IMG/VR virus record: IMGVR_UViG_3300009159_000033
Source of the DNA: a virus
Strand: one strand, 5' to 3'
Length of the DNA stretch: 64,000 nt
Shown here: positions 17,139 to 64,000 of the stretch, in pieces
Layout: each line of letters opens with the position of its first letter
How positions within the stretch are numbered: the first letter of the stretch is position 1
Translations under genes and position numbers: made by a program
The notes under the pieces: generated by a model
The model's input: the letters and a program-made list of their open reading frames with translations, nothing else
Databases searched by the model: none
What the model was told of the DNA's origin: nothing

Positions 17139-18287
17139 ATGGCTAACATTCCTAAACTGCGATTGATGCTTGCTCGGCTGGAGAAAGAAGCTGCAGTAAC
17201 CAAGGCAGAGCTACCATGGCGAGACAGAGTTGAGGTCTACACTCAAAACCCCAAGGGCAAGATCTATGGTGGCATTTGGGACAATGACAAGTCCTTTGCC
17301 CTCCCTGGCGGTGGTATTGACGAAGGTGAGGATCCTTTAGTAGCTGCTTTGAGAGAGCTTAAGGAAGAGACAGGCATTACTGCCAAGAATCCTAGGTTGC
17401 TCCCTATTGATCCCGTAGACAGTCCTTGGAGTGATGCTCATAGAGCTAAGATTAAACGCAACTTCGCTGGTTCTAGAACGCACTTTGTTTTAGCGGACGC
17501 TATGGGTAGACGAGGTAACAAGAACTTAGATGTCTGGAATGCTTCTAATAGGGGTTATTATACACCAGCCAAAGCCATTGATATCATGAACAGCAACACT
17601 AATTACATGGCTCCTACAGCTGCTGCTGCTCGGCTCAAAGCTTTGCAGCATATCCAGTCCCTAGCCATGGCAGCAGCTAAAGAAAAGTCAGCCGCTCCAA
17701 TGAACCTATACTCTTACATTCCAAGTAGTTCTATCGAGCATGTAAAAAAGCATGGACTGTTATCGGGAAACGAATTAGCAAAGCCCGAAAATAGGCACTT
17801 GTTAGACATAGCTAGACCAGATGGAGATGCAGACAGATGGCTCAAAGAAAGGGATGCAAGATTAGCTAAGTCTCCATGGACAAACTCTTATAACGGCCCC
17901 TCTGCTTTCTTTGGGGACATAGACGCTGGGAAAATCCACGATAAGCACCCAATCAAGAAGTTTGATACAACTAGGGCTGTAATTAAATTACGAGAACTAT
18001 TGAGGGACTACCCCGCTACAAAGATGGAAGGTAGCGAATTGATTCCATTCTCAGACACTACTTACGATGCCTTAGATGAAAAAGGTCAAAATGAATTTGT
18101 GAATAAACGGCATCATACGCTATCATTGGACGAGATTAAGGCATTGCTGACGAGGGGTCAAAACCCGAAAGATATGTGGAAAGACTTCAAGGACACAGAA
18201 GGTAAGTACTACGCATCAGACGTGCCACATGCACAAGTTGTTACACCTATGGGAAAGATACCTTCTAAATACATTGAGTTTAAATAA
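17139..18287 (+). CDS. Nudix hydrolase fused to a second, possibly ADP-ribosyltransferase-like, domain
   Basis: Nudix box GGGIDEGEDPLVAALRELKEETG; linker KEKSAA; then LYSY...IEHVKKHGLLS and GKIPSKYI. Confidence 0.7.
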   Translation: MANIPKLRLMLARLEKEAAVTKAELPWRDRVEVYTQNPKGKIYGGIWDNDKSFALPGGGIDEGEDPLVAALRELKEETGITAKNPRLLPIDPVDSPWSDAHRAKIKRNFAGSRTHFVLADAMGRRGNKNLDVWNASNRGYYTPAKAIDIMNSNTNYMAPTAAAARLKALQHIQSLAMAAAKEKSAAPMNLYSYIPSSSIEHVKKHGLLSGNELAKPENRHLLDIARPDGDADRWLKERDARLAKSPWTNSYNGPSAFFGDIDAGKIHDKHPIKKFDTTRAVIKLRELLRDYPATKMEGSELIPFSDTTYDALDEKGQNEFVNKRHHTLSLDEIKALLTRGQNPKDMWKDFKDTEGKYYASDVPHAQVVTPMGKIPSKYIEFK

Positions 18288-18294
18288 GTAAGTA

Positions 18295-18879
18295 ATGAAA
18301 AAGTTAGAAATTGGACCATCTAGTCACCAGCGTACCCCCGATGGTGCACCTACAGCGACTTGGGATACATTAGATAGTAGCTATAAAGCGACCTTCAACG
18401 CTAAATGGTCTGGTGATGTAGCCTCACTCCCTATCCCAGAATCTACCTACGATTGGGTGCACGCTTCGCATGTATTAGAACATTTGCCATGGTGGCAGAC
18501 TATTGGTGCGTTGACCGCTGTACATAACATCTTGAAGTTTGGTGGTCGGTTTACAGTTTGGGTGCCCGATGCTTTAAAAATCATCAAGTTAGCAATGGAA
18601 GATCCTGCGCAATTGCAAGAGCTTGAGAAGATTTGGCGGTGCGGTGGTCTTAACCCTAGCAAAGATCCTTGGATTTACATGAATGCTCGTGTATTCTGGG
18701 GAGCTAGGCCGGGCGAGGTAGGACAGGAGCAGCACTTTCATCGTGCTATGTTTGGGGAAGAATCATTGAAAAGGTTGATGGAGAAGGCTGGGTTCACTAG
18801 CGTGGCTCGAATTGAGCGGGACACCGCTGTTGATGTGGGGCATGGTTGGATGGAAATTGGGATGGAAGGGTTTAAATGA
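18295..18879 (+). CDS. Class I SAM-dependent methyltransferase (Methyltransf_11-like)
   Basis: LEIGP, YDWVHASHVLEHL, ILKFGGRF. Confidence 0.75.
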   Translation: MKKLEIGPSSHQRTPDGAPTATWDTLDSSYKATFNAKWSGDVASLPIPESTYDWVHASHVLEHLPWWQTIGALTAVHNILKFGGRFTVWVPDALKIIKLAMEDPAQLQELEKIWRCGGLNPSKDPWIYMNARVFWGARPGEVGQEQHFHRAMFGEESLKRLMEKAGFTSVARIERDTAVDVGHGWMEIGMEGFK

Positions 18880-19589: not shown

Positions 19590-19590
19590 G

Positions 19591-19676: not shown

Positions 19677-19695
19677 TTTGTTTAAAAGATTTAAC

Positions 19696-19723
19696 TAGAC
19701 AACCCCCCAAAGGGGGCTAAAAT
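19696..19723 (+). promoter_or_regulatory. Sigma70-like promoter for the HNH gene
   Basis: TAGACA-16 nt-TAAAAT; spacer contains CCCCC/GGGGG inverted repeat. Confidence 0.45.
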
Positions 19724-22015: not shown

Positions 22016-22654
22016 ATGTACGCACAACGCACCAAACAAGCAAACATTGGTAAACTTTTGGCAAGCCTAGGGCTTGGCGGATTGATTGGAGGCGGTATTG
22101 GCCGTGTCTCTGGCTATAATTCTGGTAACCACGCAGGTTACGCAGAAGGCTCTGCAAATGCGAGCAAAGACACTTTAATAAATCTACTCAAAGGTATGAC
22201 TGGTGTTGTACAACAAGGCGCAGAAAGCAAGCTAGACTTAAAGAAGCTACTTGAATCTAAACCTGGTGTAATGCCATCTATTCCTATGGCTCCACTAAAT
22301 GCAGAATCAATTAAAACTGCAAAACTACGCAGAGTACTCCGCCGAGTAGAAAAGTCAGCTGCGGAGAAACGAGCCATTGCTGCGTTGTTAGCTGCGCTTA
22401 AGGGTGGTGGTGGTAAAGCGATGGGTGCAATTGAACGGCTGATGGGTAAAGCTGCACCTAAAACTCCTTTTGTTTCACAAGGTGCGCTCAATGCCGGACT
22501 TGAATCTTCTGCGGCGCGCCCCTTAAGCTTTGCGGAGTCTGCTCTGCCTGCCCTACCTAAAGGGTTTAGTGGTGTGCACCCCGCAGAACTTCCTGACACC
22601 GATATAATGCACAAATTATTTATGCTTAACCAAAAGTTTAAACACCAGAACTAG
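22016..22654 (+). CDS. KxA-motif protein with a glycine zipper, probable virion cargo
   Basis: TKQA leader, GLGGLIGGGIG zipper, VEKSAAEKRA. Confidence 0.55.
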   Translation: MYAQRTKQANIGKLLASLGLGGLIGGGIGRVSGYNSGNHAGYAEGSANASKDTLINLLKGMTGVVQQGAESKLDLKKLLESKPGVMPSIPMAPLNAESIKTAKLRRVLRRVEKSAAEKRAIAALLAALKGGGGKAMGAIERLMGKAAPKTPFVSQGALNAGLESSAARPLSFAESALPALPKGFSGVHPAELPDTDIMHKLFMLNQKFKHQN

Positions 22655-22664: not shown

Positions 22665-24437
22665 GTGCCATTTAAATCTGATGCTCAGCGTAAATTATGT
22701 TATGTCCTTAAAGGCAAAGGTCAGGCAGGTTCATGGGACTGCGCTGAATGGTCTGAAGCCACCGGCGATAAGAAGTTGCCAGAGCATGTAGAGGACCAAA
22801 CAGAGAAGAAGGCACTGGGAATCACCAACAAGCTGAAAGGCGGAGTTGGTGATAATAAAAATCCTGCGGAGTTAGACAGATCTGAATTAAATTCTGGAAT
22901 TAAAGAAGAAAAAGAACATACCAATGATACGGATGTAGCCACAGAGATTGCAGTGGATCATCTTACCGAAGAGCCTAAGTACTACTCAAAAATGAAAAAG
23001 GTTGAAAAGAGGAGTGCTATGCACATTATACAACCCTCAAAATTCGCTGAGTTGTTAGCTAAGGTGGCAGCAGCACGACCCGGCCTTTGGGCTAACATAC
23101 GAGCTAAAAAGAAGCGTGGCGAGACTGCTGCTACGCCTGGGGACGAGGACTATCCAGATTCTAAGAACTGGGACAAGGTAACGGCGATCTCTGAGAAGAA
23201 GGCTCAATGCTGGGAAGGCTATGAGCGTGTTCCGGGCACTAAGGCATTAACTTCTGGTTCTTGTCGGCCTAAAGGTAAAAAGAAAGAAGATAAAAGTGCA
23301 GCAGCTTGGGAAACCTCTGAAGGTAAGAATCCCGAAGGCGGTTTGAACGACAAGGGCAGAGCTAGCTTAAAGGCACAAGGACACGACATCAAACGACCTC
23401 AGCCTGAGGGCGGAGCTCGTAAAGATAGCTTCTGTGCACGCATGGGCGGGATGAAGGCTAAGCTCACCTCTAGCGAGACAGCTAACGATCCCGATAGCCG
23501 AATCAACAAAGCATTGCGTAAGTGGAAGTGCGGTAGTGACATGGTAGAGAAACAAGCTATCGCTGCATTATTTAAGACATTGGGTCAAGGTGCATTAAGA
23601 GCTATGTCTAAGGCTCCTATGACCACGGCTGCTGTGGGTATTGGTGGTGCGGGTGCGTATGAAGCTACTCGACCTACGAACAAGCTTATTCCTCAGATAC
23701 TTCCTAATGCAACTGGTGCAGCTCCGCCTACTCCTCCTCTTAATGAGAAAACTGGTTATGTTATTGCTGCTTTGGCCAAATTGGCAGTAGATCAAGCTGG
23801 TGGATCTTATTTAAATGCACAAAATACTATAAATGCACAACGAGTAGCACAAATAAAAGCAGATGCCGAGCGAGTGCGAATTGCTTCGGGTGCTCCTAAA
23901 CCATCTGGAAATGGAACTTATAGATACAGCGGCACTGTATTTCCCAACAGAGTTGAAAACGCACAGCACAGCTTTACTCCTCCCGCAGCCCAAGGCCAAG
24001 GAGAGTTTCTACGACAACCAGTTCAAGCTCCTAGCATGAAAGGTGACACTACACCTACTTTTAACAATCCTACTCCGCCTACCTCTAATAACACTTTTGC
24101 ACCGAGCACGGCAAAGCCTACTAATCCTCCTCCTGCTAATCGTTGGAAACCCATAGACATTAGTGGAGATCGAAGAAGAAAAGAGAAAGAGATGGGTTGG
24201 GCTCCTAATTCTATGGATCAAGGTGGGAGTCGCTATGGAGAGAATGGCCCACGTTCTGCGGAACTAGTAAAACAGTATGGTCCAACTGGTGCACCTTCTA
24301 AACCCGCTACACCTACTTCTTTAACGCAGGCTCCGGTGGCTAATGCTTCTAAAGCCCCATCTAATACTTATGCTACTTCTAGGTTCTCTTCCACACCCCC
24401 AAGTTGGGCGACACAAGGTTGGAACCCAAAACTTTAA
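22665..24437 (+). CDS. Multi-module KxA-punctuated polyprotein-like head protein
   Basis: Successive short modules (MPFKS..., EHT..IAVDHL..YY, GLWANI, CWEGY, EGKNPEGGLN..SFCARM) each ending in KxA-type sites. Confidence 0.65.
   Translation: MPFKSDAQRKLCYVLKGKGQAGSWDCAEWSEATGDKKLPEHVEDQTEKKALGITNKLKGGVGDNKNPAELDRSELNSGIKEEKEHTNDTDVATEIAVDHLTEEPKYYSKMKKVEKRSAMHIIQPSKFAELLAKVAAARPGLWANIRAKKKRGETAATPGDEDYPDSKNWDKVTAISEKKAQCWEGYERVPGTKALTSGSCRPKGKKKEDKSAAAWETSEGKNPEGGLNDKGRASLKAQGHDIKRPQPEGGARKDSFCARMGGMKAKLTSSETANDPDSRINKALRKWKCGSDMVEKQAIAALFKTLGQGALRAMSKAPMTTAAVGIGGAGAYEATRPTNKLIPQILPNATGAAPPTPPLNEKTGYVIAALAKLAVDQAGGSYLNAQNTINAQRVAQIKADAERVRIASGAPKPSGNGTYRYSGTVFPNRVENAQHSFTPPAAQGQGEFLRQPVQAPSMKGDTTPTFNNPTPPTSNNTFAPSTAKPTNPPPANRWKPIDISGDRRRKEKEMGWAPNSMDQGGSRYGENGPRSAELVKQYGPTGAPSKPATPTSLTQAPVANASKAPSNTYATSRFSSTPPSWATQGWNPKL
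22888..22903. promoter_or_regulatory. 16-bp palindromic site TAAATTCTGGAATTAA
   Basis: Exact consensus match inside CDS 22665. Confidence 0.55.
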
Positions 24438-24446: not shown

Positions 24447-25970
24447 GTGTTCAAATGCTCCGGCAGTACCTTTGATGCAATTGCACACTTAGCTGCCCAT
24501 GCTGCTAATTTAAATCTTACAAAATACGCAGACTTAAATTCTGGAATTGAACTGCAGCCTCATCAAGCAAGAGTTGTACGCAATGTACAAAATCAACTAG
24601 CTACTGAAGACAAGGTTAGACTGTTGCTGTACCAAGGGCTGGGCTCTGGCAAGACCTTAGGTGGTCTTGCTGCTGCTGAAAGCTCTAAGCTACCTTACAC
24701 CGCAATCGTACCCGCTGCTCTCCGTACTAATCTTAGGAAAGAGCAAGAGAAGTTCATCGACCAAGATACGGCGGTGCCTAGCAGCATCATGAGCCATACT
24801 GGGTTAGGTAGAGGGCTTCCCATAGCAAATCCTGACTCGTTGCTCATTGACGAAACACACCGGTTTAGGAACGCACAATCTTCTCAAACGCAGAACTTGT
24901 TAGATGCAGCTAGAAAAGCAAAGCAAGTAGTGATGTTGAGTGGTACACCTATTGTGAACTCTCCTGCGGATTTTGCAGTACCTTATAGCGTGCTTACCGG
25001 CAAGGATACGACCCCAGAAGAGTTTAGTGCTAGGTATGTGGACAACGACCCACAACCTTCGCTGTATCGCCGTTTCTTTAATTTAAAGGCACCCGATCCC
25101 GGCTTAAAGAATGTAGAGGAGCTGAAGAGCAACTTAAAAGGTAAGGTAGATTACTTTGCACCAGCTAAGCCTCAAGCAGAGATTAATAGAGAAGATGTGA
25201 TCACGGAGATGACTAGGGATCAAACAGACCTAAACTCACAGATGTATGGTAAGCTCCCCGCCTTGCTCAAATGGAAGCTACAACTAAACTACCCACTGAG
25301 TGACGCAGAGTCTAAGAAGATGGTTAGCTTTCTGACTGGACCAAGACAGCTAGGGTTGTCTACGAGCACATTCACGCAGGATAAGTCTGACCCCATGGCT
25401 GCGTTTAACAGCTCACCTAAGCTAACAGAAGCATTTAAAAGGGTTAACGAAATGATCCAAAAGGATCCTAAAGGTAAAGCTCTCATCTTTTCTAACTTCA
25501 TTGAGTCGGGCTTGAACCCTTATCAAGCTGCGTTGGACAAAGCGGGCATCCCTGCAGCATCCTTCACAGGAGCACTCTCTGACAAACAGCGAAAGAAGCT
25601 GGTAGACGACTATAACTCAGATAAGCTGAAGGTGGCATTGCTGGGGCCATCTGGTACTGAGGGGCTCTCGTTCAAAGGTACAAAGCTTATGCAGCTATTG
25701 GATCCACATTGGAATAATGTTAGGTCTGAGCAGAGTGAAGGGAGAGGATTAAGGTATGACAGTCATGCCCATCTTCCGCTTGCCGATAGGAAAGTAAAGA
25801 TAGAGCGGTACATAGCTAGGACAGCCCCAAGCCGATTAAAATCATTACTCCGCTACATTGGGGTTAAAGTTAATCCCTTATCTGCTACTGATGATTACCT
25901 CATTGCAGCGGGTAATCGTAAGCAGCAGCTAAATGACAAGTTCTTAGACTTACTCAAAGGATTAGATTAG
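24447..25970 (+). CDS. Superfamily 2 DExH helicase/ATPase (SNF2-related, NPH-I/VETF-like)
   Basis: LQPHQ, LLYQGLGSGKT, LLIDETH, LSGTP, LIFSNF, GTEGL, QSEGRGLRYDSH. Confidence 0.85.
   Translation: MFKCSGSTFDAIAHLAAHAANLNLTKYADLNSGIELQPHQARVVRNVQNQLATEDKVRLLLYQGLGSGKTLGGLAAAESSKLPYTAIVPAALRTNLRKEQEKFIDQDTAVPSSIMSHTGLGRGLPIANPDSLLIDETHRFRNAQSSQTQNLLDAARKAKQVVMLSGTPIVNSPADFAVPYSVLTGKDTTPEEFSARYVDNDPQPSLYRRFFNLKAPDPGLKNVEELKSNLKGKVDYFAPAKPQAEINREDVITEMTRDQTDLNSQMYGKLPALLKWKLQLNYPLSDAESKKMVSFLTGPRQLGLSTSTFTQDKSDPMAAFNSSPKLTEAFKRVNEMIQKDPKGKALIFSNFIESGLNPYQAALDKAGIPAASFTGALSDKQRKKLVDDYNSDKLKVALLGPSGTEGLSFKGTKLMQLLDPHWNNVRSEQSEGRGLRYDSHAHLPLADRKVKIERYIARTAPSRLKSLLRYIGVKVNPLSATDDYLIAAGNRKQQLNDKFLDLLKGLD
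24535..24550. promoter_or_regulatory. 16-bp palindromic site TAAATTCTGGAATTGA
   Basis: Exact consensus match inside the helicase CDS. Confidence 0.55.
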
Positions 25971-27014: not shown

Positions 27015-27125
27015 CTCTGTTTAAAGAATCAAATTAAAGTTAGCCCCAGCAATTGCTAAAGTTAACAAACAAAGTTAAAGTAATGACTAAGTTTGCGGTT
27101 TTGTTTCGATTTTATGGAGATAATC

Positions 27126-34185: not shown

Positions 34186-34190
34186 TTAGT

Positions 34191-34206
34191 TAAAATCTAG
34201 AATTGA
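34191..34206. promoter_or_regulatory. 16-bp palindromic site TAAAATCTAGAATTGA
   Basis: Intergenic, just after the stop of 33184. Confidence 0.7.
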
Positions 34207-34238
34207 ACCTAGGCACTTATTTGTAGCTTAGGTTCAAT
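34202..34238. terminator. Intergenic hairpin overlapping the palindrome
   Basis: ATTGAACCTA/TAGGTTCAAT stem followed by CTAGTTTCTTT. Confidence 0.5.
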
Positions 34239-34260
34239 CTAGTTTCTTTTGAGGGATAGC

Positions 34261-43661: not shown

Positions 43662-44096
43662 ATGGAAGCTTTTCTTCAACGTTTACCTGCAATATTTAAC
43701 AATAAAACGGCAGCTAACAGCAATGGCTGGTACATTGCGGAATCAAATATAAAAGGTAAAGGCATATTTGCTGACAAGGATTACAAGGAAGGGGAGATCA
43801 TTGGCAGTGGGGGTACAGCGGGCGGAGAAGATGAATTCGGTTCTAAAATCTGGAATTTAACAGAACTGGCTCGTTATTGTAACCATCAATGGAAATCGAA
43901 TGTTGACATAAAGAAAGATAATGATCAAATTGATTTAGTGGCAAAACGAGAAATTAGCAAGGATCAAGAAATTGTAGCGGATTACGCACAAGTTTCTCGA
44001 GAGCTTGGAGCTCGTTCACGCATGATGTGGAATGGCAAAGATGTACCATCTACCGACTTTTCTGACTATGTGGAAAAAAACAACGAAGATGAATAA
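43662..44096 (+). CDS. SET-domain protein lysine methyltransferase
   Basis: KGKGIFA, ARYCNH, EIVADY motifs; NKTAA leader. Confidence 0.8.
   Translation: MEAFLQRLPAIFNNKTAANSNGWYIAESNIKGKGIFADKDYKEGEIIGSGGTAGGEDEFGSKIWNLTELARYCNHQWKSNVDIKKDNDQIDLVAKREISKDQEIVADYAQVSRELGARSRMMWNGKDVPSTDFSDYVEKNNEDE
43844..43859. promoter_or_regulatory. 16-bp palindromic site TAAAATCTGGAATTTA
   Basis: Exact consensus match inside the SET gene. Confidence 0.55.
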
Positions 44097-50726: not shown

Positions 50727-51509
50727 ATGGACATGAATAAGACAAGCGCAAAAAAGTTATTGAAACAAATTAAAGTTGAAAAATCTGCAGCAACACCAAT
50801 TGGTGCGCTCGGTGATGATCTTAGAACGCAAGTTAATCAACAAATGCAATCTGATGCAATTAAAACTATTCTTAAGGCAGTAGCATTTGCAGCAGGAACT
50901 GGAGCTGCAGTTAGAGGAGTTACCGGACTTTTTGAAGGGCCAAGAAACCCTAAAAAAGGCCCGCGCGTAATTGATATGCCGGTAGCATATCCAAAAGAAA
51001 AGAATGCAATAGATTCAAATTCTAGAGCGACTTCTCCTTATGGTTTAGACTACTTTTTACCTAGCCTTGTGGTAGGTGCTCCACTCGCTGCTTATGGTGG
51101 CTGGAAAGGTGTAGATCTTTTGCTAAACAAAGTAAAGGAACGAGAAAGCAAAGCAAAGCTTGAATCTTCAAAAAAGAAATACGAGGAAGCTTTACTTGGA
51201 GCATACAAGCAAGGAACTGATGATTGCTTAGACCAGGCATTTTCTGGATATAGTCAAAAAGCGGCATTAGATCCTATTGGTGCCATTTCTGACAAATTTA
51301 ATTCTACTTTTCCAAATGCTTCTGGGCTTGGTAAAGGACTAGCTTTAACTTGGTTGTTGTCTAGTGTTCCTGCTGGTTACTACTTGGTCAACAAAGCTAT
51401 GAAAAAGAATAGTAGGCGCGCCATATTGGAAGAGGCTGTCGAAGAAAGAGCACGTCGGCAAGCATTGACACAACCTCCTGAAATTTACGCTACTCCGCAT
51501 GCCGTATAA
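50727..51509 (+). CDS. KxA-punctuated protein with three hydrophobic segments
   Basis: VEKSAA and SQKAA sites; hydrophobic helices each followed by basic coiled segments. Confidence 0.55.
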   Translation: MDMNKTSAKKLLKQIKVEKSAATPIGALGDDLRTQVNQQMQSDAIKTILKAVAFAAGTGAAVRGVTGLFEGPRNPKKGPRVIDMPVAYPKEKNAIDSNSRATSPYGLDYFLPSLVVGAPLAAYGGWKGVDLLLNKVKERESKAKLESSKKKYEEALLGAYKQGTDDCLDQAFSGYSQKAALDPIGAISDKFNSTFPNASGLGKGLALTWLLSSVPAGYYLVNKAMKKNSRRAILEEAVEERARRQALTQPPEIYATPHAV

Positions 51510-54500: not shown

Positions 54501-55996
54501 CTAAAGTTACTAAGGTTCCTTTTGCTTATCAGAAGTTTGTAGCCCAGTTACAATCTGCTGGTGTTAATGTAGTCAAGCAGGGAACGCAGACTCAGATTAT
54601 GGCATTAACGGACAAGGATATCGATAACTTAGCTGGGGATCGTGAGCTTAGCAGTGCCGATGGAGTGGAGTGGGGCAACCAGCTTAAAGAGATTAATGGT
54701 GGCTTGTTTGACAAGGCTAAGACCGGCGGGCATGGTGGCACTCGATGGTCGTTTATGCGTTTGCACGAACCTTTACCTAACCCAGTAATGGAAGAACCTA
54801 TCCGTCATATGCTTGGGCTAACACAGAAAAAGTTTGAAGGTATTGTGGCTGGCACAGAATTTTTAGAGAAATATGGAACCGGTACGAAAGCGTTACAAAA
54901 AGCATTAGCAGATCTTAATCCTGCTGCAGAAATTCCTAAAGCTCGGGCTATTATTGCGGCGGGTAGAGGGGCTCAGCGGGATGAGGCAATTCGTAAACTT
55001 GGTTATTTTAAATCGGCACAGAAACTTAATTTGCAGCCTGCAGACTACATGCTGACCAAAGTTCCAGTTCTTCCCCCAATGTTTCGTCCAGTTAGCTTGA
55101 TGAGCAACGGCATGCCATTGGTTAACGATGCTAATCACCTTTACAAAGAACTGTTTGAGGCTAATCAGAATTTTAGCAAAATGCAGCAAGAAGTAGGGGA
55201 AGAGGCTTCGGGATCGGAGCGTCTTTCCACCTATCAAGCATTTAAAGCGGTGACTGGTCTAGGAGATCCGATTAGTGCAAAAAGCCAAGAGAAGAATGTT
55301 CGTGGGGCTTTAAAAAATGTGTTTGGTGCAAGTCCTAAGTTTGGGATTGTGCAACGTAAACTGATTTCTTCTACAGTAGACAATGTGGGCCGAGCGGTAA
55401 TTACTCCAAATCCGGAATTGGACATGGACTCGGTAGGGCTACCCGAAGACAAGGCATTTAAGGTCTATGAGAAATTTGTTACTAGAAGATTGGTGCGACA
55501 AGGCATGTCTATGCTACAGGCTCGTACTCAATTAGAAGATAAGACTCCAGTAGCACGCAAGTTCTTGCTTGAAGAGATGGAGCATCGTCCTGTATATATT
55601 AGTCGTGCTCCTGTTTTGCATAAGTTTGGGATTATGGCAATGAGACCAAGATTGACTAAAGGAAATACCTTACAAGTGAGCCCTTTAATTGTAAAAGGGT
55701 TTGGTGCTGACTTTGATGGCGACACCATGAACTATCATGTGCCAAGTACGGAAAAAGCTAGGCAAGAGGCTTTTGATCGTTTGTTACCTAGTCGTAATCT
55801 TTTTAGCATAGGGGATATGAAATCTGTTATGCATGCCCCTGCTAATGAATACATTGGGGGTTTGTTTATGGGTACAGATCCTTCTCGTAAATCTGATCGA
55901 CCAGTACGGATTTTTCAGAACATACAAGATGTAAGGCGAGCACATGCGCGCGGAGATATTTCAATCAACGATCCGGTACGAATTTTAAATGGGTAG
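51530..55996 (+). CDS. rpoBC: Multi-subunit RNA polymerase beta subunit fused to the N-terminal half of beta'
   Basis: beta motifs GTFINNGTE, DPVRTPESG, NFEDAIVIS, GDKLSGRYGDKG, LNPLG, MKLHH; beta' motifs VPVLPPMFRP, GRAVI, SRAPVLH, catalytic GADFDGD at 55703-55723. Confidence 0.95.
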   Translation: MLPLSSNLFDSSNLSLLGNTPPLAQPMQPLPPATPLPSFHEFHDTKKVRSIIYDRVLQAAQQLQPMANDRHTLSLTGVNYRDGDTASKQEQKAAILNGRSQGRRLEGTWELMDNATQQVIASKKSVLATVPHLTDRGTFINNGTEYILRNQQRLLPGVYTRTRNNGEIESHVNVMPGKGVSQRYFLDPEKGKFKLKVGQASVGLTPLLKAMGVTSEQAQEAWGKDLFASNYNSDDASEYTRLKGMFLSSKELAEPEEKQKQALLAKFSKMEMDPEVNRRTLGNPHSGVTLDTLMDITKKLIKVNRKEADPDDRDALHFQQFVGPEDLFSERIARDKGGVRRNLLWKMSGKGDLNSMPSSALDKQVKSALLGSGLGQAIEEINPTDIYEKTMSVTRVGEGGIGSMDAIPMESRNVQSSMLGYVDPVRTPESGRVGVDTYLARGSRKGSDGKLYAQFKDMRNGEMTFKTPQDVADLTVGFPGSQEGEDGRVVAMRGGKMLHVPKSSIDLELPDMEEAFNPLSNVIPMKSQVKGQRLVMASRMTTQALPLASPEAPLVQSAVPRTGGKQSYEELYSAGMGALRASQGGTVTSVTDEEIKVRNEDGTEETHELYHNFPFNRKTFFHQTAAVQPGDTFKPNQLLASSNFTNKTGTMALGTNARTAYIPWQGKNFEDAIVISESFAKKTASSHMYQHELEVDDKTQVGKRQFIQAFPATFKKDILANIDDQGVIKPGTVVNFGDPLVLGITQKENAYNKVHKKGQAGFNDAAVLWQHHDTGVVTDVVMGKKGPVVVVKAESPTQVGDKLSGRYGDKGVIADIIPDSEMPHDSNKLPFEVLLNPLGIISRTNPAQMSELFLGKIAAKRGMPIKVDDFDTKKDMTQWVMQELAKEGLSDLEDIIDPSKEQKIKNIATGSRFFMKLHHTSESKGQGRSGGAYTMEDAPAKGGIEGSKRIGLMDANALLSHGATDTLQDIFTVRRQKNDQYWMQYMSGYNPKVTKVPFAYQKFVAQLQSAGVNVVKQGTQTQIMALTDKDIDNLAGDRELSSADGVEWGNQLKEINGGLFDKAKTGGHGGTRWSFMRLHEPLPNPVMEEPIRHMLGLTQKKFEGIVAGTEFLEKYGTGTKALQKALADLNPAAEIPKARAIIAAGRGAQRDEAIRKLGYFKSAQKLNLQPADYMLTKVPVLPPMFRPVSLMSNGMPLVNDANHLYKELFEANQNFSKMQQEVGEEASGSERLSTYQAFKAVTGLGDPISAKSQEKNVRGALKNVFGASPKFGIVQRKLISSTVDNVGRAVITPNPELDMDSVGLPEDKAFKVYEKFVTRRLVRQGMSMLQARTQLEDKTPVARKFLLEEMEHRPVYISRAPVLHKFGIMAMRPRLTKGNTLQVSPLIVKGFGADFDGDTMNYHVPSTEKARQEAFDRLLPSRNLFSIGDMKSVMHAPANEYIGGLFMGTDPSRKSDRPVRIFQNIQDVRRAHARGDISINDPVRILNG

Positions 55997-56068
55997 GCAA
56001 TATATCTCTATCCTAGATTTTGATTAGAACTTAGAATCATAAGATGAGATCACACAAGGAGTATGTTT

Positions 56069-56791
56069 ATGGCAGTTAATTTGGAATTGTTAAAGATGGC
56101 CCGACAACATGTAGGAAAACGCCATCTATCTAAATATGCATTTGTTGCAGCAGGTGACCCAGCTATGGGTGCTCCTATGCCTTCTGGCGGTGCTCCTCCT
56201 ATGGATCCTTCCATGGGTGGCGGTGCTCCACCTCCTGACCCTTCAATGGGTGGTGCTCCTCCTATGGATCCTTCTATGGGCGGTGGTGCTCCTCCTATGG
56301 ATCCTTCTATGGGTGGTGGTGCTCCACCTCCTCCCCCTATGGACCCAATGGCAGCAATTATGCCAATGGTTCAACAGGCAGTACAACAAGCAATGTCGGC
56401 TAATGGTGGTGGGCAACCGCAAGGTGCGGGCCCTGGGCTTAAACCTAAAATTGACATAAATGTTGAAATTGTACAAATTAAAAAGATGCTTGCTAAAATT
56501 ATTGATGCTCTTGGTATCCATGTGCCTGTGTCTGATATGGTGGTAACACCCGAAGATTTAAACCAGATTGCACAAGGTGGACCAGGCTTGGCAGCAGCTA
56601 CTCCCGATGGTAAGTCGGGTGGCGGTCTTGGGCAGATTGCCCCTATTTCTCCGATCAAGGCTGCTGAAGCGTGGGAAAGTGGCACAGCTTTTAGTTTATC
56701 AGCTGACTACTATCCTCAGCAGCCTTCTAATAAAAATGGCAGTGTAGCTGCAATGGCTACTGCTCTTTTAATGCGTAATAATAACAAGTAA
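56069..56791 (+). CDS. Pro/Gly/Met-rich repeat protein between the RNAP genes
   Basis: KMA/KYA leader, (GGAPPMDPSMG)n, then a short helical region. Confidence 0.6.
   Translation: MAVNLELLKMARQHVGKRHLSKYAFVAAGDPAMGAPMPSGGAPPMDPSMGGGAPPPDPSMGGAPPMDPSMGGGAPPMDPSMGGGAPPPPPMDPMAAIMPMVQQAVQQAMSANGGGQPQGAGPGLKPKIDINVEIVQIKKMLAKIIDALGIHVPVSDMVVTPEDLNQIAQGGPGLAAATPDGKSGGGLGQIAPISPIKAAEAWESGTAFSLSADYYPQQPSNKNGSVAAMATALLMRNNNK
56186..56349 (+). repeat. In-frame tandem repeat, 30-33-nt unit, about 4.5 copies
   Basis: GGTGCTCCTCCTATGGATCCTTCTATGGG units. Confidence 0.9.
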
Positions 56792-57644: not shown

Positions 57645-60600
57645 ATGTTGAATACGACCGTTGGACAACTGTTAATTAATGATGTCCTTCCGGAAGAGTT
57701 GAGAGACTCCCATCGTGTGCTAGACAAAAAAGGGTTGCAATCTTTACTACAGCAAGTGGCGCGGCAGCACCCAGAGAATTACCGAGATATATCTTTTAAG
57801 CTAAGTAATCTTGGTCAAAGTATAGCACAAGAGCAGGGTGGTATGTCGTTTGGGCTTCGTCACATGCAAGTAAGTAAATCTGCAATAGCTTCCCGCCAGA
57901 AGGTTAGAGCTTCTCTTACTAATATCCTAGCTGACGATTCTTTGACAGACCAAGAGCGAAACGAGCAGATTATTCGTGCAGTTGGCAAGGAAAGTCCAGA
58001 ACAGCAAAAACAAATACTTGCAGAAGCGTTAAAAGACAAGAACCCTCTCGGTATGCAGGTTATGTCGGGTACCCGTGGTAAGTCTATGAATCTAACTAGT
58101 TTGTTAGGTTCAGACATGCTGTATTCGGACCAGCGTGACGATGTAATTCCAATTCCTGTGCTGCGAAGTTACAGCGAGGGGCTGTCTCCTGCCGAGTACT
58201 GGGCTGGAACCTACGGAGCACGCAAAGGCATTATGGCAACTAAGTTTGCCACACAAGATGCTGGATTCTTTAACAAACAACTTAATCAAACTAGTCATAG
58301 ATTGGTAGTCACCGGAGAAGATGCCGAAGAGGCAGACGACGCACCTATCCGTGGATTAGTGGTGGATACTGATGATCCAGACAATGAAGGGGCATTGCTA
58401 GCTCGTAATGTTGGTCCTTACGCTAGAAATACTCCACTTACTCCAAAAATACTGAATCATTTAAAACGGCTTGGTACACCTAAAATCTTAGTGAGATCTG
58501 CCCTAGTGGGCGGGTCTCCCGATGGCGGTGTTTATTCTAGAGATGTAGGTATTAGAGAAACTGGAAAGCTGCCTGGGCTTGGCGAGCAAGTTGGGTTACA
58601 GGCTGCCCACGCTTTAAGTGAACCGATTAGCCAAGGTCAGTTATCTGCAAAGCATTCGGGGGGCGTGGCCGGACAAGAAAAAGCTGTTAGCGGTTTTCAG
58701 TATTTAAACCAATTAGTACAAGTTCCTAAGAAAATGCAAGGAGGGGCAGCCCACTCGTTAATGGATGGAGTGGTGCAGCGTATTGAAGAAGCCCCTGCGG
58801 GCGGGAGCTATGTCACCATTGGGGATAAACAACATTATGTAGGGGCTGGGTTTGAGCTTAAAGTAAAAAAAGGAGATGAGGTAGAGGCTGGTGATGTAAT
58901 TAGTTCAGGAATTCCTAACCCAGCAACTATTACCGAACATAAAGGAATTGGAGAGGGTAGGCGGTATTTTGTTAATGAGTTCCGCAAGGCGATGGGTGAC
59001 AGCGGAATGTTTGGGCACAGACGTAATATTGAGGTGTTAGCCCGAGGTCTTATCAACCATGTAAGGCTGACAGAAGAAACAGATGACCATGTGCCTGACG
59101 ATGTTGTTCCTTACTCTACGCTTGAACACACATACAAGCCACGAGAAGACCACCAGCGGTTAACTCCTAAGCGTGCATTAGGACAGTATCTAGAGCGCCC
59201 TGTACTGCACTACACTATTGGGACCAAGATTCGACCTTCTATGCTTAAGAATTTTGAAGATTTTGAAATTAATGAAATTCCAGTGCATAAGAACCCACCG
59301 CCATTTGAACCAAACATGGTTCGTGGGTTGTATCAAATGCAACATGATCCCGATTGGATGACACAAATGTATGGGTCTGGTCTAAAGAAAAGCTTCTTAG
59401 ACTCTGTGACTCATGGGGCTATCAGCGAAGAACGAGGTACAAGCTTTGTTCCAAGCTTAGCAATGGGTCTTGATTTTGGAGAAGGTAAAAACCATGCGGT
59501 AATAAAACCTCAGCCTAGTTATGAGCTACCGGCATTACCTCCACTTCCTCCCCCTATTCCTTCTACTCCTGCTGCGGCAAAGCCTACAGCTCCTAGCAGT
59601 GCTCCTTTTTTTGGCGGGCGTTTTACCCCTGGGCAAACTAAGCTAGGATTAGATAGCACACCTTCTGTGTCTAAGCCACCTTCTGTCTCTAAGCCACCTG
59701 CTGTAACCAGTATGTCACCAGTTTCTAAGCCTCTTAATACAAACATTATGCCTTCTCCTACTCCAGCCCCCAAAACTGCACCGACTACCCCAAGTTCAAA
59801 CCAATTTAGTAACTTGATGCAAAACGATACTTTTGCACAGCAAACTGGTCAGATGTTAAACGGAGCAGATCCTACAAGTGCACTTATGATGCTAGGAGGC
59901 ATGGCAGGGGGTAGTAATAACATGTCTCAGTTATTTAACTCTGGGCCTTCGCAGCGATTAGCCACAAGCGGTAGTGGCGGTGGAATGTTTGGTAATTTGT
60001 TTAATATGTTTGGGAATAACAATCAAAATGGGCAATCAATTATGCCCAGTGGAGATTACAACTCAGCTACAAATCAAGGCGGGATGTTGAGTAGTAACAC
60101 ATCTGCGGAATCTGCACCCGCATCTTCAGCAGAAGCAGTTCCTGCAGAGGCTACATCAAAAGCTGGTCCAGATATATTTACAGCTGTAGATCATGCACCG
60201 GCGGCCTATACCGCTATAAAAAATACAATCGTACCGCCTAAGGCATTACCTACTCCCCCTGCGCCTACTGCACTAGTGCCTAAAGCACCGCTACCTACAG
60301 CTCCAGCACCTATTACCCCTACTCCACCGATACCCAAAGCACCAATACCCAAAGCACCAATGCCAGCTGCACCAATACCAGCTGCACCCGGAGGTTTACT
60401 TAGTAAAGTAATGCCAGCAGTTTCCACGACTTACAAAACATTGGCTAAAGCAGCCCCTGGTATTGGAATAGCTTTAGAAACTGGGAGTGTCGGTTACGAT
60501 GTTTACAATAAGGGTTGGGATAACACAACTAACGACGCAGCACAAAATATAAGAAACATTGCTTCAGGTAAAGATGGGTTGCACACATTGTGGCAAGCTC

Positions 60601-61364
60601 CTGTTCAAATTTTAAACCCAGTGGCTAACGCACAGCTAATAGCAGGCGGTACAACTCAGACTGCACAGATGATTGGGGAGCAAGCTGGGATAGGTGCTGA
60701 AGCTATTCGAGATAAAGTAACTGGAACTGATGCTATTTCTCGTGCATCGGTTGTGGACAAATCAAAAGTTAACGCAATGGAAGTAGCAAAGCAAAAAGAT
60801 TTAGAAGCACAAAAAGCTAAGCTTCAGCAAGAGTCGCAAAATACAAATATCATGGCTCCCTCCATGATAGAACAAAATAAACAAGAGCAAGCTGGCATCG
60901 ATGCACAAATAGGAGACGCTAAAACTAGACAAGAAAATACGGCAGACGAAACAGCTAAGTGGAGATTAGGTCAGCAGAATTGGTTTGGGAGTGGCGGACA
61001 CAAATTCCGAGATGCCATGCAAAATTCGGTTGCAGCTACGGACACAGAGCTAGCAGATTTAAAAGCTAAAGGTGAATTAGATGCAGTAGGTCAAGCACGG
61101 CAGGAGCAGTTATTAAATAGACAGGCGCAGCGTAAGGCAATGCTGGGTACTTATGACCGAGAAAGCGGTTCCTCGGGTAAGGGATTATTCAGCAAGGATA
61201 TACGCAATCGGGTTAGCGGTCTTAAAGAAAACATTGTGGCAGTTACTGCACAGCTTCGAGATACTTCTCTTCCTCCTGAACAAAGGGCAAAGCTAGAAGC
61301 CCAATTGAAAACTAATAACGAGGACCTTGCTGAGTACCGAGGATGGGCAGAAAGTTCTAAATAA
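57645..61364 (+). CDS. rpoC: RNA polymerase beta' C-terminal half plus a ~620-aa low-complexity/coiled-coil extension
   Basis: TTVGQ, SGTRG, EGLSP, bridge helix GARKG...AGF, trigger loop GEQVGLQAAHALSEP...KH.GG, HRRNIEVL. Confidence 0.92.
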   Translation: MLNTTVGQLLINDVLPEELRDSHRVLDKKGLQSLLQQVARQHPENYRDISFKLSNLGQSIAQEQGGMSFGLRHMQVSKSAIASRQKVRASLTNILADDSLTDQERNEQIIRAVGKESPEQQKQILAEALKDKNPLGMQVMSGTRGKSMNLTSLLGSDMLYSDQRDDVIPIPVLRSYSEGLSPAEYWAGTYGARKGIMATKFATQDAGFFNKQLNQTSHRLVVTGEDAEEADDAPIRGLVVDTDDPDNEGALLARNVGPYARNTPLTPKILNHLKRLGTPKILVRSALVGGSPDGGVYSRDVGIRETGKLPGLGEQVGLQAAHALSEPISQGQLSAKHSGGVAGQEKAVSGFQYLNQLVQVPKKMQGGAAHSLMDGVVQRIEEAPAGGSYVTIGDKQHYVGAGFELKVKKGDEVEAGDVISSGIPNPATITEHKGIGEGRRYFVNEFRKAMGDSGMFGHRRNIEVLARGLINHVRLTEETDDHVPDDVVPYSTLEHTYKPREDHQRLTPKRALGQYLERPVLHYTIGTKIRPSMLKNFEDFEINEIPVHKNPPPFEPNMVRGLYQMQHDPDWMTQMYGSGLKKSFLDSVTHGAISEERGTSFVPSLAMGLDFGEGKNHAVIKPQPSYELPALPPLPPPIPSTPAAAKPTAPSSAPFFGGRFTPGQTKLGLDSTPSVSKPPSVSKPPAVTSMSPVSKPLNTNIMPSPTPAPKTAPTTPSSNQFSNLMQNDTFAQQTGQMLNGADPTSALMMLGGMAGGSNNMSQLFNSGPSQRLATSGSGGGMFGNLFNMFGNNNQNGQSIMPSGDYNSATNQGGMLSSNTSAESAPASSAEAVPAEATSKAGPDIFTAVDHAPAAYTAIKNTIVPPKALPTPPAPTALVPKAPLPTAPAPITPTPPIPKAPIPKAPMPAAPIPAAPGGLLSKVMPAVSTTYKTLAKAAPGIGIALETGSVGYDVYNKGWDNTTNDAAQNIRNIASGKDGLHTLWQAPVQILNPVANAQLIAGGTTQTAQMIGEQAGIGAEAIRDKVTGTDAISRASVVDKSKVNAMEVAKQKDLEAQKAKLQQESQNTNIMAPSMIEQNKQEQAGIDAQIGDAKTRQENTADETAKWRLGQQNWFGSGGHKFRDAMQNSVAATDTELADLKAKGELDAVGQARQEQLLNRQAQRKAMLGTYDRESGSSGKGLFSKDIRNRVSGLKENIVAVTAQLRDTSLPPEQRAKLEAQLKTNNEDLAEYRGWAESSK

Positions 61365-61451: not shown

Positions 61452-61661
61452 ATGTGGAATAAACCGCTGCTTGGTGGGCTTGACATAAAATATGCTGCAG
61501 CATACTTGTTGCCTCCGACTACCATGAAGAAAAAGAAAAAGAAAACGCCACTAGAGGAAGAAGAAACGGATGTGGAAAAGGTGGCAGCTGCCTTGGGTGA
61601 TGCTATTGTAAATGCCCGCCTTTCTTTACTTAGACAGCAGATGCGCTCTAATAATCGGTAA
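61452..61661 (+). CDS. Small KxA-motif protein
   Basis: IKYAAA and VEKVAAA; SD aggtg. Confidence 0.5.
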   Translation: MWNKPLLGGLDIKYAAAYLLPPTTMKKKKKKTPLEEEETDVEKVAAALGDAIVNARLSLLRQQMRSNNR

Positions 61662-61686
61662 GTAATACAATCGAGGAATGTTGCTC

Positions 61687-64000
61687 ATGGAAATGCCTAG
61701 ACAAAATAATTTATTGAAGAATGCTAGTATCGGCGGTAAGGGAGGAGAAACTGAATTTGAACAAGCTTTCTCTAGCTTGGCTTATGCTTATTTAAAAGAT
61801 AAGGCACCCCGCCTCCTTGATTACATGTTAGGCTTCCAGCTAATTGATCGAAATGAAGATAACACTAAAGCTATTGGTGTCTTTGGTTTTCAAGTCGGCA
61901 AGCAATGGTTGTACGCTCCTGTATTTTTCTTAAATGGTGATTTAAAAGGACACGAGTTACTCTACATAAAAAATAATGATTCGTTTGTTCCTATGAAGGA
62001 AAACTGGATCAACTATCTTATGAGTCGAAAACCTCATATTTTAGGGGAGTCTTCCGTAGGTAAATTACAAGAGTTAGGAGGAATCGCTCCTGATATCAAT
62101 TCTTTATCTATTTCTCCCCAAGGCCACAAGCACGCAAGTGATTCCCAGTGGTTACAGCCCGTTCTACCTATGCTAGCGGCCTTCAAAGTAAAACTTGCGG
62201 GCTCTTTGTACCGTGGTGCCGGCAGCCGTAAGCTGGATCAAAAGGCAGTTGTTCGAGTGCCATTCACAGCAGCATTAACCAAGACAGCTTCAAATCTGGA
62301 TTTTAACCAAGTGCTGCCTAAAAGCTTGGCATTACTTGAAGCAGCTTACGACTTAGCAGAACGCTATCCCACCATTAAAAAAGCTACTAGTGACTTCTAT
62401 GGTGTGGATTGTTTTTCACGCTGGGCTAAAGAACTTCGAAGTAACACAATCAAGCAGGCTAGCAGCATTCTTCCTACGCCTACTACTGTCACACTTGTGC
62501 CCAACACCTTGCTAAGCTCACTATCCCAGCCACTTCCTATTACCGACCACATTAAGGAAGGTAAGTTAGAAGTCTATATGTCAGCTTCTGTGGTAACTAA
62601 TAAAGATGAGCTAAACACCCTAGATCGAGAAAGGTTATTACAAGGCAAAGTAGTCATCAAAGATCGTAGAGAAGATACAGAAGTAAGTAAGCTTTACACC
62701 ACTGAAAATGATATTAGCCTCACCAACCCCTCTGAAACTGAATTGTATTCTGTTTTAGAGAGCTCTGGTGAATTTAGTAAAATGTTGGTGGTCTTGAATG
62801 GTATCAGCAGTCGTGGAGCAGAGTCCATGACCACAGTTGTACGGATAGATAAAAAGGATGGGGCTAACAAAAGCTGGTTAAATGCCGACAGCACGTCAGT
62901 TTTTGCTACACAAGTTTCTGACAAAGACGAGTGGAAAGATTGGTTTGATGGCTTATCCTCTGATACAGACTTGGACGAGGATGCAGAATATATTGCTATA
63001 AACTACAGTCGTTCAGCTACTGCTCCTTTCCGTGTAACTACGGACATGGGTGATGGTGAGTACAAAGTAGATTTTCGCACGAATAAAGATTATTCAGCTT
63101 CACGTAGCGAGCTGATGCCTAAGATACAAGATCGGTATGCTCCTTCTAGGCGGGGCATGGCAGCAGGTGCTAATCTAATAAGTTCTTTCAATAGTAATAG
63201 TAATTATGGGGCTACTCTAATCATTGGCAAAGAAGATAAGAGCGGCCTTAGACTTAGACCTGTCTCCGGACAACTTCGTGTGCCAGCTTCTTTCAAGTTC
63301 ATCAAATTGTCGGATGGTTCTTCTTCCAGCATCTTTGGCGGGTGTGGCTGTTCACCTTTTGACGATGAATCAAATCCTATTAAGTTAGGTGGCTTAGCTG
63401 ACATCAAACGCTTATTAGTTGAAAAGACAGCTAGGCTCAAGATATTTAATAACGGAACTGATGTGTACCTAGACTCTGTAATCGGTGCCGTTCAATTAAG
63501 CAAAAAAGCAGCACTATGCCGCTTGGTAGACACACATGGACTTCGTGAAAAAGTTGCCGTGGATATGCTGCAACAAGCAGAGAAAAAAGGTCATGCAATT
63601 TATCGTGTGCTTTATGCTGCTGGTTATGGGACCGAGAAACAAGCTGAGCCTAATACCAGCGTGTTAGCTGGAGGCCCATCCTTCCCCCTTGATACGGATA
63701 CTTCTGGGGATCGTGGCAGTGAAACCTATGGCCCAAGCACCTCTGCCCTAACTCGATATTCTACCGAGAAAAACTCGCCTATCCCTTCAATGAGCGGTAA
63801 GAACACAAATAGGTCTAAGTGGGACAACTGGCAGAACTTTGAAGCTAAAGATTTTCAACAAAATCTGCAATCTGCTCAAACTGCTGGCAAAGATGGGCAG
63901 AAAGAAGTATTTGATGTTTCAATGATGGCAGGTATGTTAAAAACAGTAAGACAAGATTCACTAGTAGATCGCCACTTGGGCGACTTAATGGCAGCCTTGG
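61687..64000 (+). CDS. Large KxA-punctuated protein, 3' end outside the window (not in the ORF track)
   Basis: Open frame from ATG 61687 (MEMPRQNNLLKNASIGG...FEQAFSSLAYAYLKDKAP) to the window end, at least 771 codons by my translation. Confidence 0.8.
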   Translation, partial: MEMPRQNNLLKNASIGGKGGETEFEQAFSSLAYAYLKDKAPRLLDYMLGFQLIDRNEDNTKAIGVFGFQVGKQWLYAPVFFLNGDLKGHELLYIKNNDSFVPMKENWINYLMSRKPHILGESSVGKLQELGGIAPDINSLSISPQGHKHASDSQWLQPVLPMLAAFKVKLAGSLYRGAGSRKLDQKAVVRVPFTAALTKTASNLDFNQVLPKSLALLEAAYDLAERYPTIKKATSDFYGVDCFSRWAKELRSNTIKQASSILPTPTTVTLVPNTLLSSLSQPLPITDHIKEGKLEVYMSASVVTNKDELNTLDRERLLQGKVVIKDRREDTEVSKLYTTENDISLTNPSETELYSVLESSGEFSKMLVVLNGISSRGAESMTTVVRIDKKDGANKSWLNADSTSVFATQVSDKDEWKDWFDGLSSDTDLDEDAEYIAINYSRSATAPFRVTTDMGDGEYKVDFRTNKDYSASRSELMPKIQDRYAPSRRGMAAGANLISSFNSNSNYGATLIIGKEDKSGLRLRPVSGQLRVPASFKFIKLSDGSSSSIFGGCGCSPFDDESNPIKLGGLADIKRLLVEKTARLKIFNNGTDVYLDSVIGAVQLSKKAALCRLVDTHGLREKVAVDMLQQAEKKGHAIYRVLYAAGYGTEKQAEPNTSVLAGGPSFPLDTDTSGDRGSETYGPSTSALTRYSTEKNSPIPSMSGKNTNRSKWDNWQNFEAKDFQQNLQSAQTAGKDGQKEVFDVSMMAGMLKTVRQDSLVDRHLGDLMAAL
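62290..62305. promoter_or_regulatory. 16-bp palindromic site (1 mismatch) TCAAATCTGGATTTTA
   Basis: Inside CDS 61687. Confidence 0.45.

Follow-up and report, generated by a model that had tools for sequence, protein, structure and literature searches.

We analyzed a 64,000-nucleotide stretch of DNA, hereafter the window, from the virus record IMGVR_UViG_3300009159_000033, in which two genes encode a bacterial-type RNA polymerase (RNAP) without a single cysteine (Cys), and we consider the possibility that this enzyme travels in the phage head together with a sigma-like factor and an SNF2-family ATPase. The window corresponds to the reverse strand of positions 50152-114151 in the 172,719-base IMG/VR record, for which CheckV gives a completeness of 84%, and all of its sizeable genes lie on the plus strand. 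In tblastn searches with the large RNAP protein, the closest cultured relatives were Vibrio phages D181, D148 and D69 and Salmonella phage Arash, all at ~30% identity, and a tblastn comparison with all predicted proteins revealed orthologues in the Arash genome of the terminase, the DNA polymerase, the portal (window 5917-7812), both RNAP chains, the SNF2 helicase, a protein of 492 amino acids (aa) (gp222 of Arash), the major capsid protein, three tail/baseplate proteins and the sigma-like protein (gp10). RNAP relatives at 70-96% identity are found on five IMG/VR contigs and helicase relatives at 67-95% identity on six, and protein searches returned >800 relatives for the 492-aa protein and 1770 for the capsid protein, on contigs of up to ~236 kb. 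The lineage is common in metagenomes and mostly uncultured, and on balance we take the phage to be an uncultured myovirus of ~170-200 kb in the lineage of Arash, D69, D148 and D181. The only paper that we found on this lineage is the description of Arash, in which the virion proteins are noted without further analysis; a paper on Moraphage (PMC12619734), considered as another, concerns a different lineage without RNAP genes.

The features on which the argument turns are listed below, where K-x-A stands for Lys, any residue and Ala, and a leader is the segment that ends in this motif.

51530..55996, plus strand: RNAP chain 1, a complete beta subunit fused to the N-terminal catalytic half of beta' (1488 aa, 0 Cys, no K-x-A leader)
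57645..61364, plus strand: RNAP chain 2, the C-terminal half of beta' with an extension (1239 aa, 0 Cys)
24447..25970, plus strand: SNF2-family ATPase/helicase (507 aa; Pfam SNF2-rel, PF00176; Helicase_C, PF00271; ResIII, PF04851; phrog_62)
L003:17718-18455, minus strand, outside the window in a baseplate operon: sigma-like protein (245 aa, 0 Cys), a homologue of Arash gp10
L005:5782-7260, minus strand: prohead protease candidate (492 aa), upstream of the scaffold-like and capsid proteins and matching Arash gp222

Chain 1 carries, in order, the Pfam beta domains Rpb2_3 and Rpb2_6 (E 1.4e-50) and the beta' domains Rpb1_1 and Rpb1_2 (E 1.2e-23), while chain 2 carries Rpb1_5. Against solved bacterial beta subunits, chain 1 aligns with an E of 1e-67, and because its beta'N part aligns best with the cyanobacterial gamma subunit, beta' appears to be divided near the rpoC1/rpoC2 split. 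The beta' catalytic loop, NADFDGD in the bacterial type, reads GADFDGD at residue 1394 of chain 1. At the 1.35% Cys of the genome, the chance of finding none is 1.6e-9 for chain 1 and 4.7e-8 for chain 2, and both Cys4 zinc sites of beta' are lost: the ribbon flanks of the first are kept at the beta/beta' junction with a short KTGGHGGTR loop in the place of the ribbon, and at the second, compared to Salmonella RpoC, C814 is replaced by Ala227 and C888 by Gly, with C895/C898 falling in a gap. An earlier interpretation made from the letters of the window (the sequence-only reading) had described a zinc-less, two-gene RNAP devoid of Cys, and this description is borne out. Its expectation that relatives would share the Cys content and the K-x-A motif holds in part: beta-beta'N has 0 Cys in 5 relatives (70-96% identity), beta'C has 0 Cys in 9 relatives, down to 52% identity, and the helicase motif is conserved as described below, but the RNAP of the distant relatives does contain Cys (1 in beta and 4 in beta'C of Arash, 2 and 4 in D69).

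Only one RNAP set is found in the record, and no match to the alpha subunit families PF01193 or PF01000 is present in this 84%-complete sequence. Residues 1-620 of beta'C correspond to the C-terminal half of beta' and are followed by a tail of ~620 aa (residues ~620-1239) with Pro-rich linkers, an NMFGG-like low-complexity stretch and a coiled coil; this tail differs from relative to relative, and L012, L015-L019 and Arash gp216 lack it. MFGG and GGWLGGMLG stretches resembling the tail also occur in a 414-aa protein at 34249. Both RNAP genes lie within the head module, upstream of the protease, scaffold and capsid protein genes, and the Arash RNAP genes are likewise found in its head module. 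In D181 and D148, the RNAP beta match is broken by a homing endonuclease.

The helicase has a single Cys, residue 4, within a 28-aa leader that ends in TKYA (residues 25-28), in agreement with the NPH-I/VETF-like helicase, Cys-free downstream of a KxA leader, of the sequence-only reading. Its best sequence match in the PDB is vaccinia NPH-I (6rfl_Y, E 5e-7), followed by a Rad54-like protein (9e-6), with both matches confined to the C-lobe. Its Arash orthologue is the virion protein gp217 (32% identity), and 90 of the 97 helicase homologue representatives of normal length contain no Cys. The sister clade L015-L019 has the gene order beta-beta'N, helicase, small PGLWANI-module protein, PPMDP protein and beta'C, which puts the helicase between the RNAP genes; in Arash it adjoins beta'C, and this repeated linkage supports a role together with the RNAP. 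In the window, the gene is ~25 kb away from the RNAP genes, having moved relative to the L015-L019 order. The 245-aa sigma-like protein scores 26.7 bits against Sigma70_r3 (cut-off 25.3) and matches phrog_351, a sigma factor family, with an E of 1.7e-8; its region 4 match falls below the cut-off and region 2 was not found. A 69-aa, Cys-free helix-turn-helix protein of LuxR/GerE type (window 40681-40890, E 3e-11) also matches sigma-70 region 4 and might serve the phage RNAP as a minimal transcription factor.

Evidence that these proteins are packaged comes from published mass spectrometry of purified Arash particles, in which Gp206 (beta) yielded 3516 spectra, the highest of all proteins, compared to 1210 for Gp216 (beta'), 1148 for the helicase Gp217, 467 for the sigma factor Gp10, 877 for the portal and 1333 for the capsid protein (PMC10585845). 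Per residue, these counts amount to 2.3 for Gp206, 2.0 for Gp216, 2.4 for Gp217, 2.0 for Gp10, 1.5 for the portal and 4.3 for the capsid protein, and the four transcription proteins have near-equal values, compatible with a stoichiometric complex. Cys content points in the same direction: Cys is absent in common from the RNAP, capsid protein, scaffold and helicase and not from the replication enzymes, and not one of the 4294 residues of the N4 ejection proteins gp50 (3500 aa), gp51 (644 aa) and gp52 (150 aa) is a Cys, while the products of neighbouring genes contain Cys. The RNAP is thus likely to be packaged in the virion, and we infer that it would be ejected as well. Packing of RNAP and ATPase in the head, as the sequence-only reading proposed, finds indirect support in the abundance of the Arash orthologues in virions and in a Cys rule conserved across relatives; its impression that the combination is unknown among characterized phages does not hold, as Arash virions with RNAP, sigma and helicase were reported in 2023 (PMC10585845).

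A prohead protease, which the sequence-only reading had suggested looking for elsewhere on the contig, is most likely the 492-aa protein, whose predicted structure resembles the T4 gp21/herpesvirus assemblin fold. Its gene is followed by those for a 399-aa scaffold-like protein, two small proteins and the capsid protein, and it is 40% identical to its Arash counterpart over the core. Searches of Pfam, PHROGs and the PDB returned no sequence match for the protease candidate, the scaffold-like protein or most other head-module proteins, and a search for loci related to the scaffold-like protein gave only a 96% relative. In an exhaustive comparison of a model built from 21 homologues (mean predicted local distance difference test, pLDDT, of 71) with 48,161 chains, T4 gp21 (5jbl_A) ranked first (Z 7.2, 141/165 residues, root-mean-square deviation 3.9) and the varicella-zoster protease (1vzv_A) second (Z 6.4), with the proteases of human cytomegalovirus (HCMV) and Kaposi's sarcoma-associated herpesvirus (KSHV) lower down. 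Foldseek against the PDB also gave gp21 the highest probability (0.72), a value that is not significant, and in the ESM Atlas, the closest clusters that bear a name are those of Peptidase S77/S78/S80. Residues H62, H103, S166 and S230 are invariant in the 21 sequences and are thereby candidate catalytic residues. A 250-aa helical C-terminal tail keeps (D/E)-K-x-A at two places in otherwise variable linkers, as expected for self-processing by the protease. Herpesvirus assemblins cleave after Ala, and Ala at the P1 position is therefore in character for a protease of this fold.

The K-x-A motif itself is found in a set of further window proteins that are candidates for cargo.

17139..18287, plus strand: Nudix fusion (382 aa, 0 Cys; PF00293, E 2.7e-12, residues 47-99)
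22665..24437, plus strand: micro-domain protein (590 aa) with DUF5661, DUF6321 and a PGLWANI module, and K-x-A between modules
43662..44096, plus strand: SET-domain protein (144 aa; Pfam SET, E 2.3e-8), with a variable-length leader ending in a conserved K-x-A (5 sequences)
50727..51509, plus strand: 260-aa protein directly upstream of the RNAP gene, with a helical leader ending in EKSA
56063..56791, plus strand: PPMDP-repeat protein (242 aa, Cys-free), always encoded between the two RNAP genes
61678..64000, plus strand: head-module protein (843 aa) extending 209 bases beyond the window end, with a conserved K-x-A just before GG.GGETEFEQAF (8 sequences)

In the fetched loci, the helicase leader is 12-28 residues long with T/x-K-x-A-D kept, and among 120 homologue representatives (44-96% identity), 106 have K-x-A and 8 more have K-x-[GS] at a fixed distance before LQPHQ. 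The same succession of variable leader, K-x-A and conserved body is seen in the SET-domain, 260-aa, 242-aa and 843-aa proteins. The leader of the 260-aa protein ends in VKQA in one relative, and the motif is missing in the most distant one; the 242-aa protein, which is mostly low-complexity, consists of a leader, K-x-A before FVAAGDP, the PPMDP repeats and a second invariant K-x-A near the C-terminus (8-9 sequences). In relatives of the micro-domain protein, the PGLWANI module forms separate proteins of 216-298 aa with K-x-A on both sides. The N-arm of the capsid protein is preceded by L-E-K-Q-A (90 distinct N-termini), by LVKEA in Arash and by LTKEA in D69. As claimed by the sequence-only reading, the Nudix fusion is Cys-free; it comprises a leader ending in EKEA (15-18), the Nudix domain, EKSA (182-185) and a 200-aa C-terminal module. 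This last module is 93.5% identical in a 678-aa protein of a 96% relative (L020:119-2155), in which a 460-aa HExxH/acylphosphatase-like front part takes the place of the Nudix domain, and identity between the two begins at the junction AAKEKSAAPM. By this comparison of sequences, the exchange of Nudix and HExxH fronts reads as a cargo swap between near-identical phages. The SET-domain protein, judging by its domain and leader, could be a packaged protein methyltransferase.

When K-x-A enrichment was tested per protein by permutation, the motif was found more often than expected in a 471-aa protein (12 vs 4.3 expected), the protease (15 vs 4.8), the scaffold-like 399-aa protein (14 vs 4.6), a 146-aa protein (6 vs 1.8) and the 843-aa protein (11 vs 4.4), and the enriched head-assembly genes lie mostly just past the window end. 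Arash gp220, gp223 and gp222 rank 1st, 2nd and 4th of 195 open reading frames in K-x-A enrichment, and in D69, a 311-aa protein, the protease, a 269-aa scaffold-like protein and a 175-aa protein are all enriched (p ≤ 0.007). The sole strongly enriched protein outside the head module is a 392-aa protein encoded beside the terminase on the opposite strand (G000 reverse-strand 14030-15208; 15 K-x-A vs 3.9 expected). We also tried K-x-A in residues 5-70 as a classifier of Cys-poor and Cys-rich proteins and set it aside (p 0.064). Overall, it is plausible from these patterns that K-x-A is the cleavage site of the head protease.

We therefore lean towards a model in which RNAP, sigma and the SNF2 ATPase travel inside the head and enter the cell with the DNA, and in which the protease cuts cargo leaders, capsid protein and scaffold after K-x-A. 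A single bacterial-type RNAP, re-cut into beta::beta'N and beta'C with no alpha found, would work with the sigma-like factor and the ATPase; the four transcription proteins would be synthesized late, packed into the head and brought into the cell along with the genome, such that transcription could start without the host enzyme. Loss of all Cys and of both zinc sites may be an adaptation to an oxidizing particle and to loosely folded passage through the tail. The prohead protease would cut after the Ala of K-x-A, with the capsid N-terminal peptide, the scaffold and its own tail among its substrates, along with cargo leaders on the SNF2 ATPase, the SET-domain, Nudix fusion, 242-aa, 260-aa and 843-aa proteins and the micro-domain protein. 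Lacking a K-x-A leader, the RNAP chains would have to reach the head in some other way, perhaps by means of the variable beta'C tail or a leader-bearing partner encoded nearby; maturation at KxA sites, which the sequence-only reading extended to the polymerase, is thus plausible for the leader-bearing proteins and does not apply to the RNAP as proposed. The fuller version of the model, in which a Cys- and zinc-free, alpha-less, sigma-dependent holoenzyme is packed with the SNF2 ATPase and with exchangeable cargoes (Nudix, SET and, in a close relative, a metalloprotease-like module), the cargoes obey a K-x-A code read by the assemblin-like protease, and all are injected to take over the cell, is a tentative one that we would not expect to hold in every part.

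Several observations weigh against this model and are best considered alongside its alternatives, the most serious of which is that K-x-A is not a protease site at all. Under this explanation, which we consider possible yet on the unlikely side, the motif would arise incidentally from Lys/Ala-rich helices and from an N-terminal element conserved in a few families, and head maturation would use another motif or none. Raw K-x-A counts show no aggregate enrichment in Cys-poor proteins (118 vs 102.5 expected, z = 1.8) and are over-represented in Cys-rich ones (z = 3.0), other gapped dipeptides rank higher, and Glu before K-x-A is ~two-fold enriched equally in the two sets. The (E)K-x-A punctuation that the sequence-only reading saw in about a dozen proteins, and for which we count ten proteins with EKxA in 17139-64000, is accordingly upheld by conservation of position and by enrichment in head genes and not by raw number. 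Many helicase homologues have only 2-4 residues ahead of the motif, with K-x-A starting at residue 3, such that it could belong to the mature protein, and Arash gp217 lacks K-x-A altogether; the N-terminal 34 residues of the capsid protein are themselves conserved, many of the K-x-A in the protease fall in its conserved folded core, and the protease model has a pLDDT of 71 and a Z of ~7 that is in the tool's middling range. Such an incidental origin would nonetheless have to account for the recurrence of K-x-A where leader meets body in at least six unrelated families, with the segment ahead of it ranging from 2 to ~200 residues among the 120 helicase representatives alone. It would also have to explain why the motif marks the exact junction of a module swap and why the most enriched proteins in three genomes are neighbours of the protease, in a setting where assemblins of the same fold are established to cut after Ala.

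It is also conceivable, and in our estimate rather improbable, that RNAP, sigma and helicase act only in the infected cell, in a T7-style takeover, with the virion signal arising from over-expression and co-purification and the absence of Cys from oxidative or thiol-directed host defences or from lineage drift. The Arash preparation lists 116/272 proteins, among them clearly non-structural enzymes such as ribonucleotide reductases and a kinase, which means that mere detection carries little weight, and the Arash authors themselves raise over-expression and carry-over of highly expressed proteins (PMC10585845). The packaging evidence comes entirely from this relative at ~30% identity, the present phage being known from genes alone. 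Neither RNAP chain bears a K-x-A leader, and a single RNAP set means that the same enzyme must also act late in the cell, with the qualification that a second RNAP or an alpha subunit could sit in the missing part of the record. Simple carry-over is difficult to reconcile with a beta homologue detected above the capsid protein and with near-equal length-normalized counts for four proteins, and an early intracellular role is at odds with RNAP genes that sit in the head module and not among early genes. An absence of Cys that extends to capsid, scaffold and helicase, that spares the replication enzymes and that matches the N4 ejection proteins likewise argues against host defence or drift. Less probable still is that the proteins are packaged and not ejected, serving as internal head or DNA-organizing components or staying behind in the empty capsid. 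The sequences contain no direct signal for ejection, and chains of 1488 and 1239 aa are very large, but an RNAP that is catalytically intact, with GADFDGD kept, and that is accompanied by sigma and an ATPase has no evident role in a capsid, and virion RNAPs are ejected in N4 (PMC13434306) and in phiKZ-type phages (PMC7598289).

Besides these proteins, the window encodes other low-Cys proteins for which a place in the particle can be considered.

22016..22654, plus strand: glycine-zipper protein (212 aa, Cys-free), zipper stretch N-terminal, two adjacent EKxA, no Pfam family
27093..29930, plus strand: Gly/Ala-rich glycine-zipper protein (945 aa, 17.5% Gly), EKNA at residues 14-17, no family
33184..35493, plus strand: two Cys-poor low-complexity proteins (333 and 414 aa), 7 K-x-A each (p 0.013 and 0.03, uncorrected)
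47956..49071, plus strand: EKCA protein (371 aa), its sole Cys inside a conserved EKCA motif

The one Cys of the 945-aa protein lies ahead of a possible internal start. Several glycine-zipper proteins had been noted from the sequence alone, and by composition they are real (GxxxG counts of 42, 15 and 8 in the 945-, 414- and 212-aa proteins, respectively); a channel built from them, as was also suggested, would be speculation. Arash gp4, the second most detected virion protein, was considered as a homologue of the 945-aa protein and rejected, the two being alike in composition with no detectable homology. Outside the window, L004:2830-8964 (minus strand) encodes a 2044-aa Cys-free protein that contains SARMKEAGLD twice as well as a similar EKMKEAGLD, and that, judging by its length and repeats, could be a tape measure or giant internal protein; Arash gp229 was tried as its homologue and, again, composition is alike with no detectable homology.

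Positions 17139-64000 are not a single coherent system, contrary to the sequence-only reading, which had treated this interval as one apparatus. Cys-poor proteins are mixed there with ordinary Cys-containing enzymes that stand outside any packaged set, namely glycosyl- and sulfotransferases, UDP-glucose dehydrogenase, a PhyH dioxygenase, a class II ribonucleotide reductase and HNH nucleases. Genes for a GT64 protein, UDP-glucose dehydrogenase, the PhyH dioxygenase, 3-4 sulfotransferases and a GT47-like protein form a dense set in 18876-21941, 30271-33028, 35548-37406 and 39756-42244, and the predicted functions suggest that these sugar and sulfate enzymes may produce a sulfated glycan on the virion, the DNA or the host surface. 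The class II (B12-type) ribonucleotide reductase, with an ATP-cone and 15 Cys, is encoded at 45585-47864, directly upstream of the Cys-poor head block. HNH endonuclease genes are found at 19767-20588 and 38874-39290, among structural and metabolic genes.

Virion RNAPs are known from N4, phiKZ/AR9, crAss-like phages and P23-45, and all are far removed from the host enzyme, whereas the RNAP described here is recognizably bacterial and comes with a sigma-like factor. If it is injected, it would illustrate how a bacterial-type RNAP can be remodelled, with fused chains and no alpha, zinc or Cys, so as to withstand storage and transfer. Passage of a bacterial-type holoenzyme through a phage tail would then be seen for the first time, and the cargo system around it would be modular and readable from sequence alone. 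Two possible rules for recognizing ejected proteins in uncultured phages follow, the first being folded enzymes without any Cys and the second a K-x-A conserved at the junction of a variable leader and a conserved body. As the lineage has cultured Salmonella and Vibrio members, the idea is directly testable. New to the present analysis are the protease fold, the junction-conserved K-x-A replicated in Arash and D69, the helicase statistics and the Cys count of the N4 proteins.

The proposed apparatus shares individual traits with several known systems. Poxviruses package a multisubunit RNAP with SNF2-family ATPases (NPH-I, VETF), but the NPH-I match found here is limited to the C-terminal lobe and scores only slightly above that to Rad54, so that the resemblance is an analogy with no evidence of common descent. 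With T4, the phage has in common the predicted gp21 fold and, if the model holds, the removal of short leaders from packaged proteins, as in the internal proteins and Alt of T4, and the cutting of the scaffold at many sites. T4 gp21 cuts after Glu in (L/I)-x-E, however, whereas the site proposed here is K-x-A, and the protease carries a 250-aa helical tail; our literature search found no description of K-x-A as a phage protease site. In phiKZ-type phages, a gp21-like protease processes numerous head proteins, including inner-body and ejection proteins, and recognizes a short motif that ends in Glu. As is proposed here, N4 delivers an RNAP from its capsid for early transcription, with gp50, gp51 and gp52 free of Cys, but its enzyme is a single-subunit, T7-like polymerase of 3500 aa and is succeeded by a second phage RNAP and then by the host enzyme.

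Closest of all is Arash, which has the same beta::beta'N and beta'C layout (29% identity for gp206 and 27% for gp216), RNAP genes in the head module, and K-x-A that is enriched in head-module proteins and precedes the capsid N-arm. It differs in a helicase that lacks a K-x-A leader and adjoins beta'C, in a beta'C without the 620-aa tail, in a second sigma (gp196) and in an RNAP that keeps Cys (1 in beta, 4 in beta'C), and the other cargo-like window proteins have no detectable Arash homologue. In phiKZ-type phages (Chimalliviridae) and AR9, a multisubunit RNAP is packaged and injected, as is proposed here, and a Swi2/Snf2 helicase is already known to be linked to the RNAP genes of phiKZ-type phages (PMC7824862), a further precedent for the combination that the sequence-only reading had not recognized. 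The phiKZ-type and AR9 RNAPs are highly diverged, consist of 4-5 chains, use no sigma and are accompanied by a second, non-virion RNAP, whereas the RNAP of the present phage is close to the bacterial enzyme, has a sigma-like factor at its side and is the sole RNAP found.

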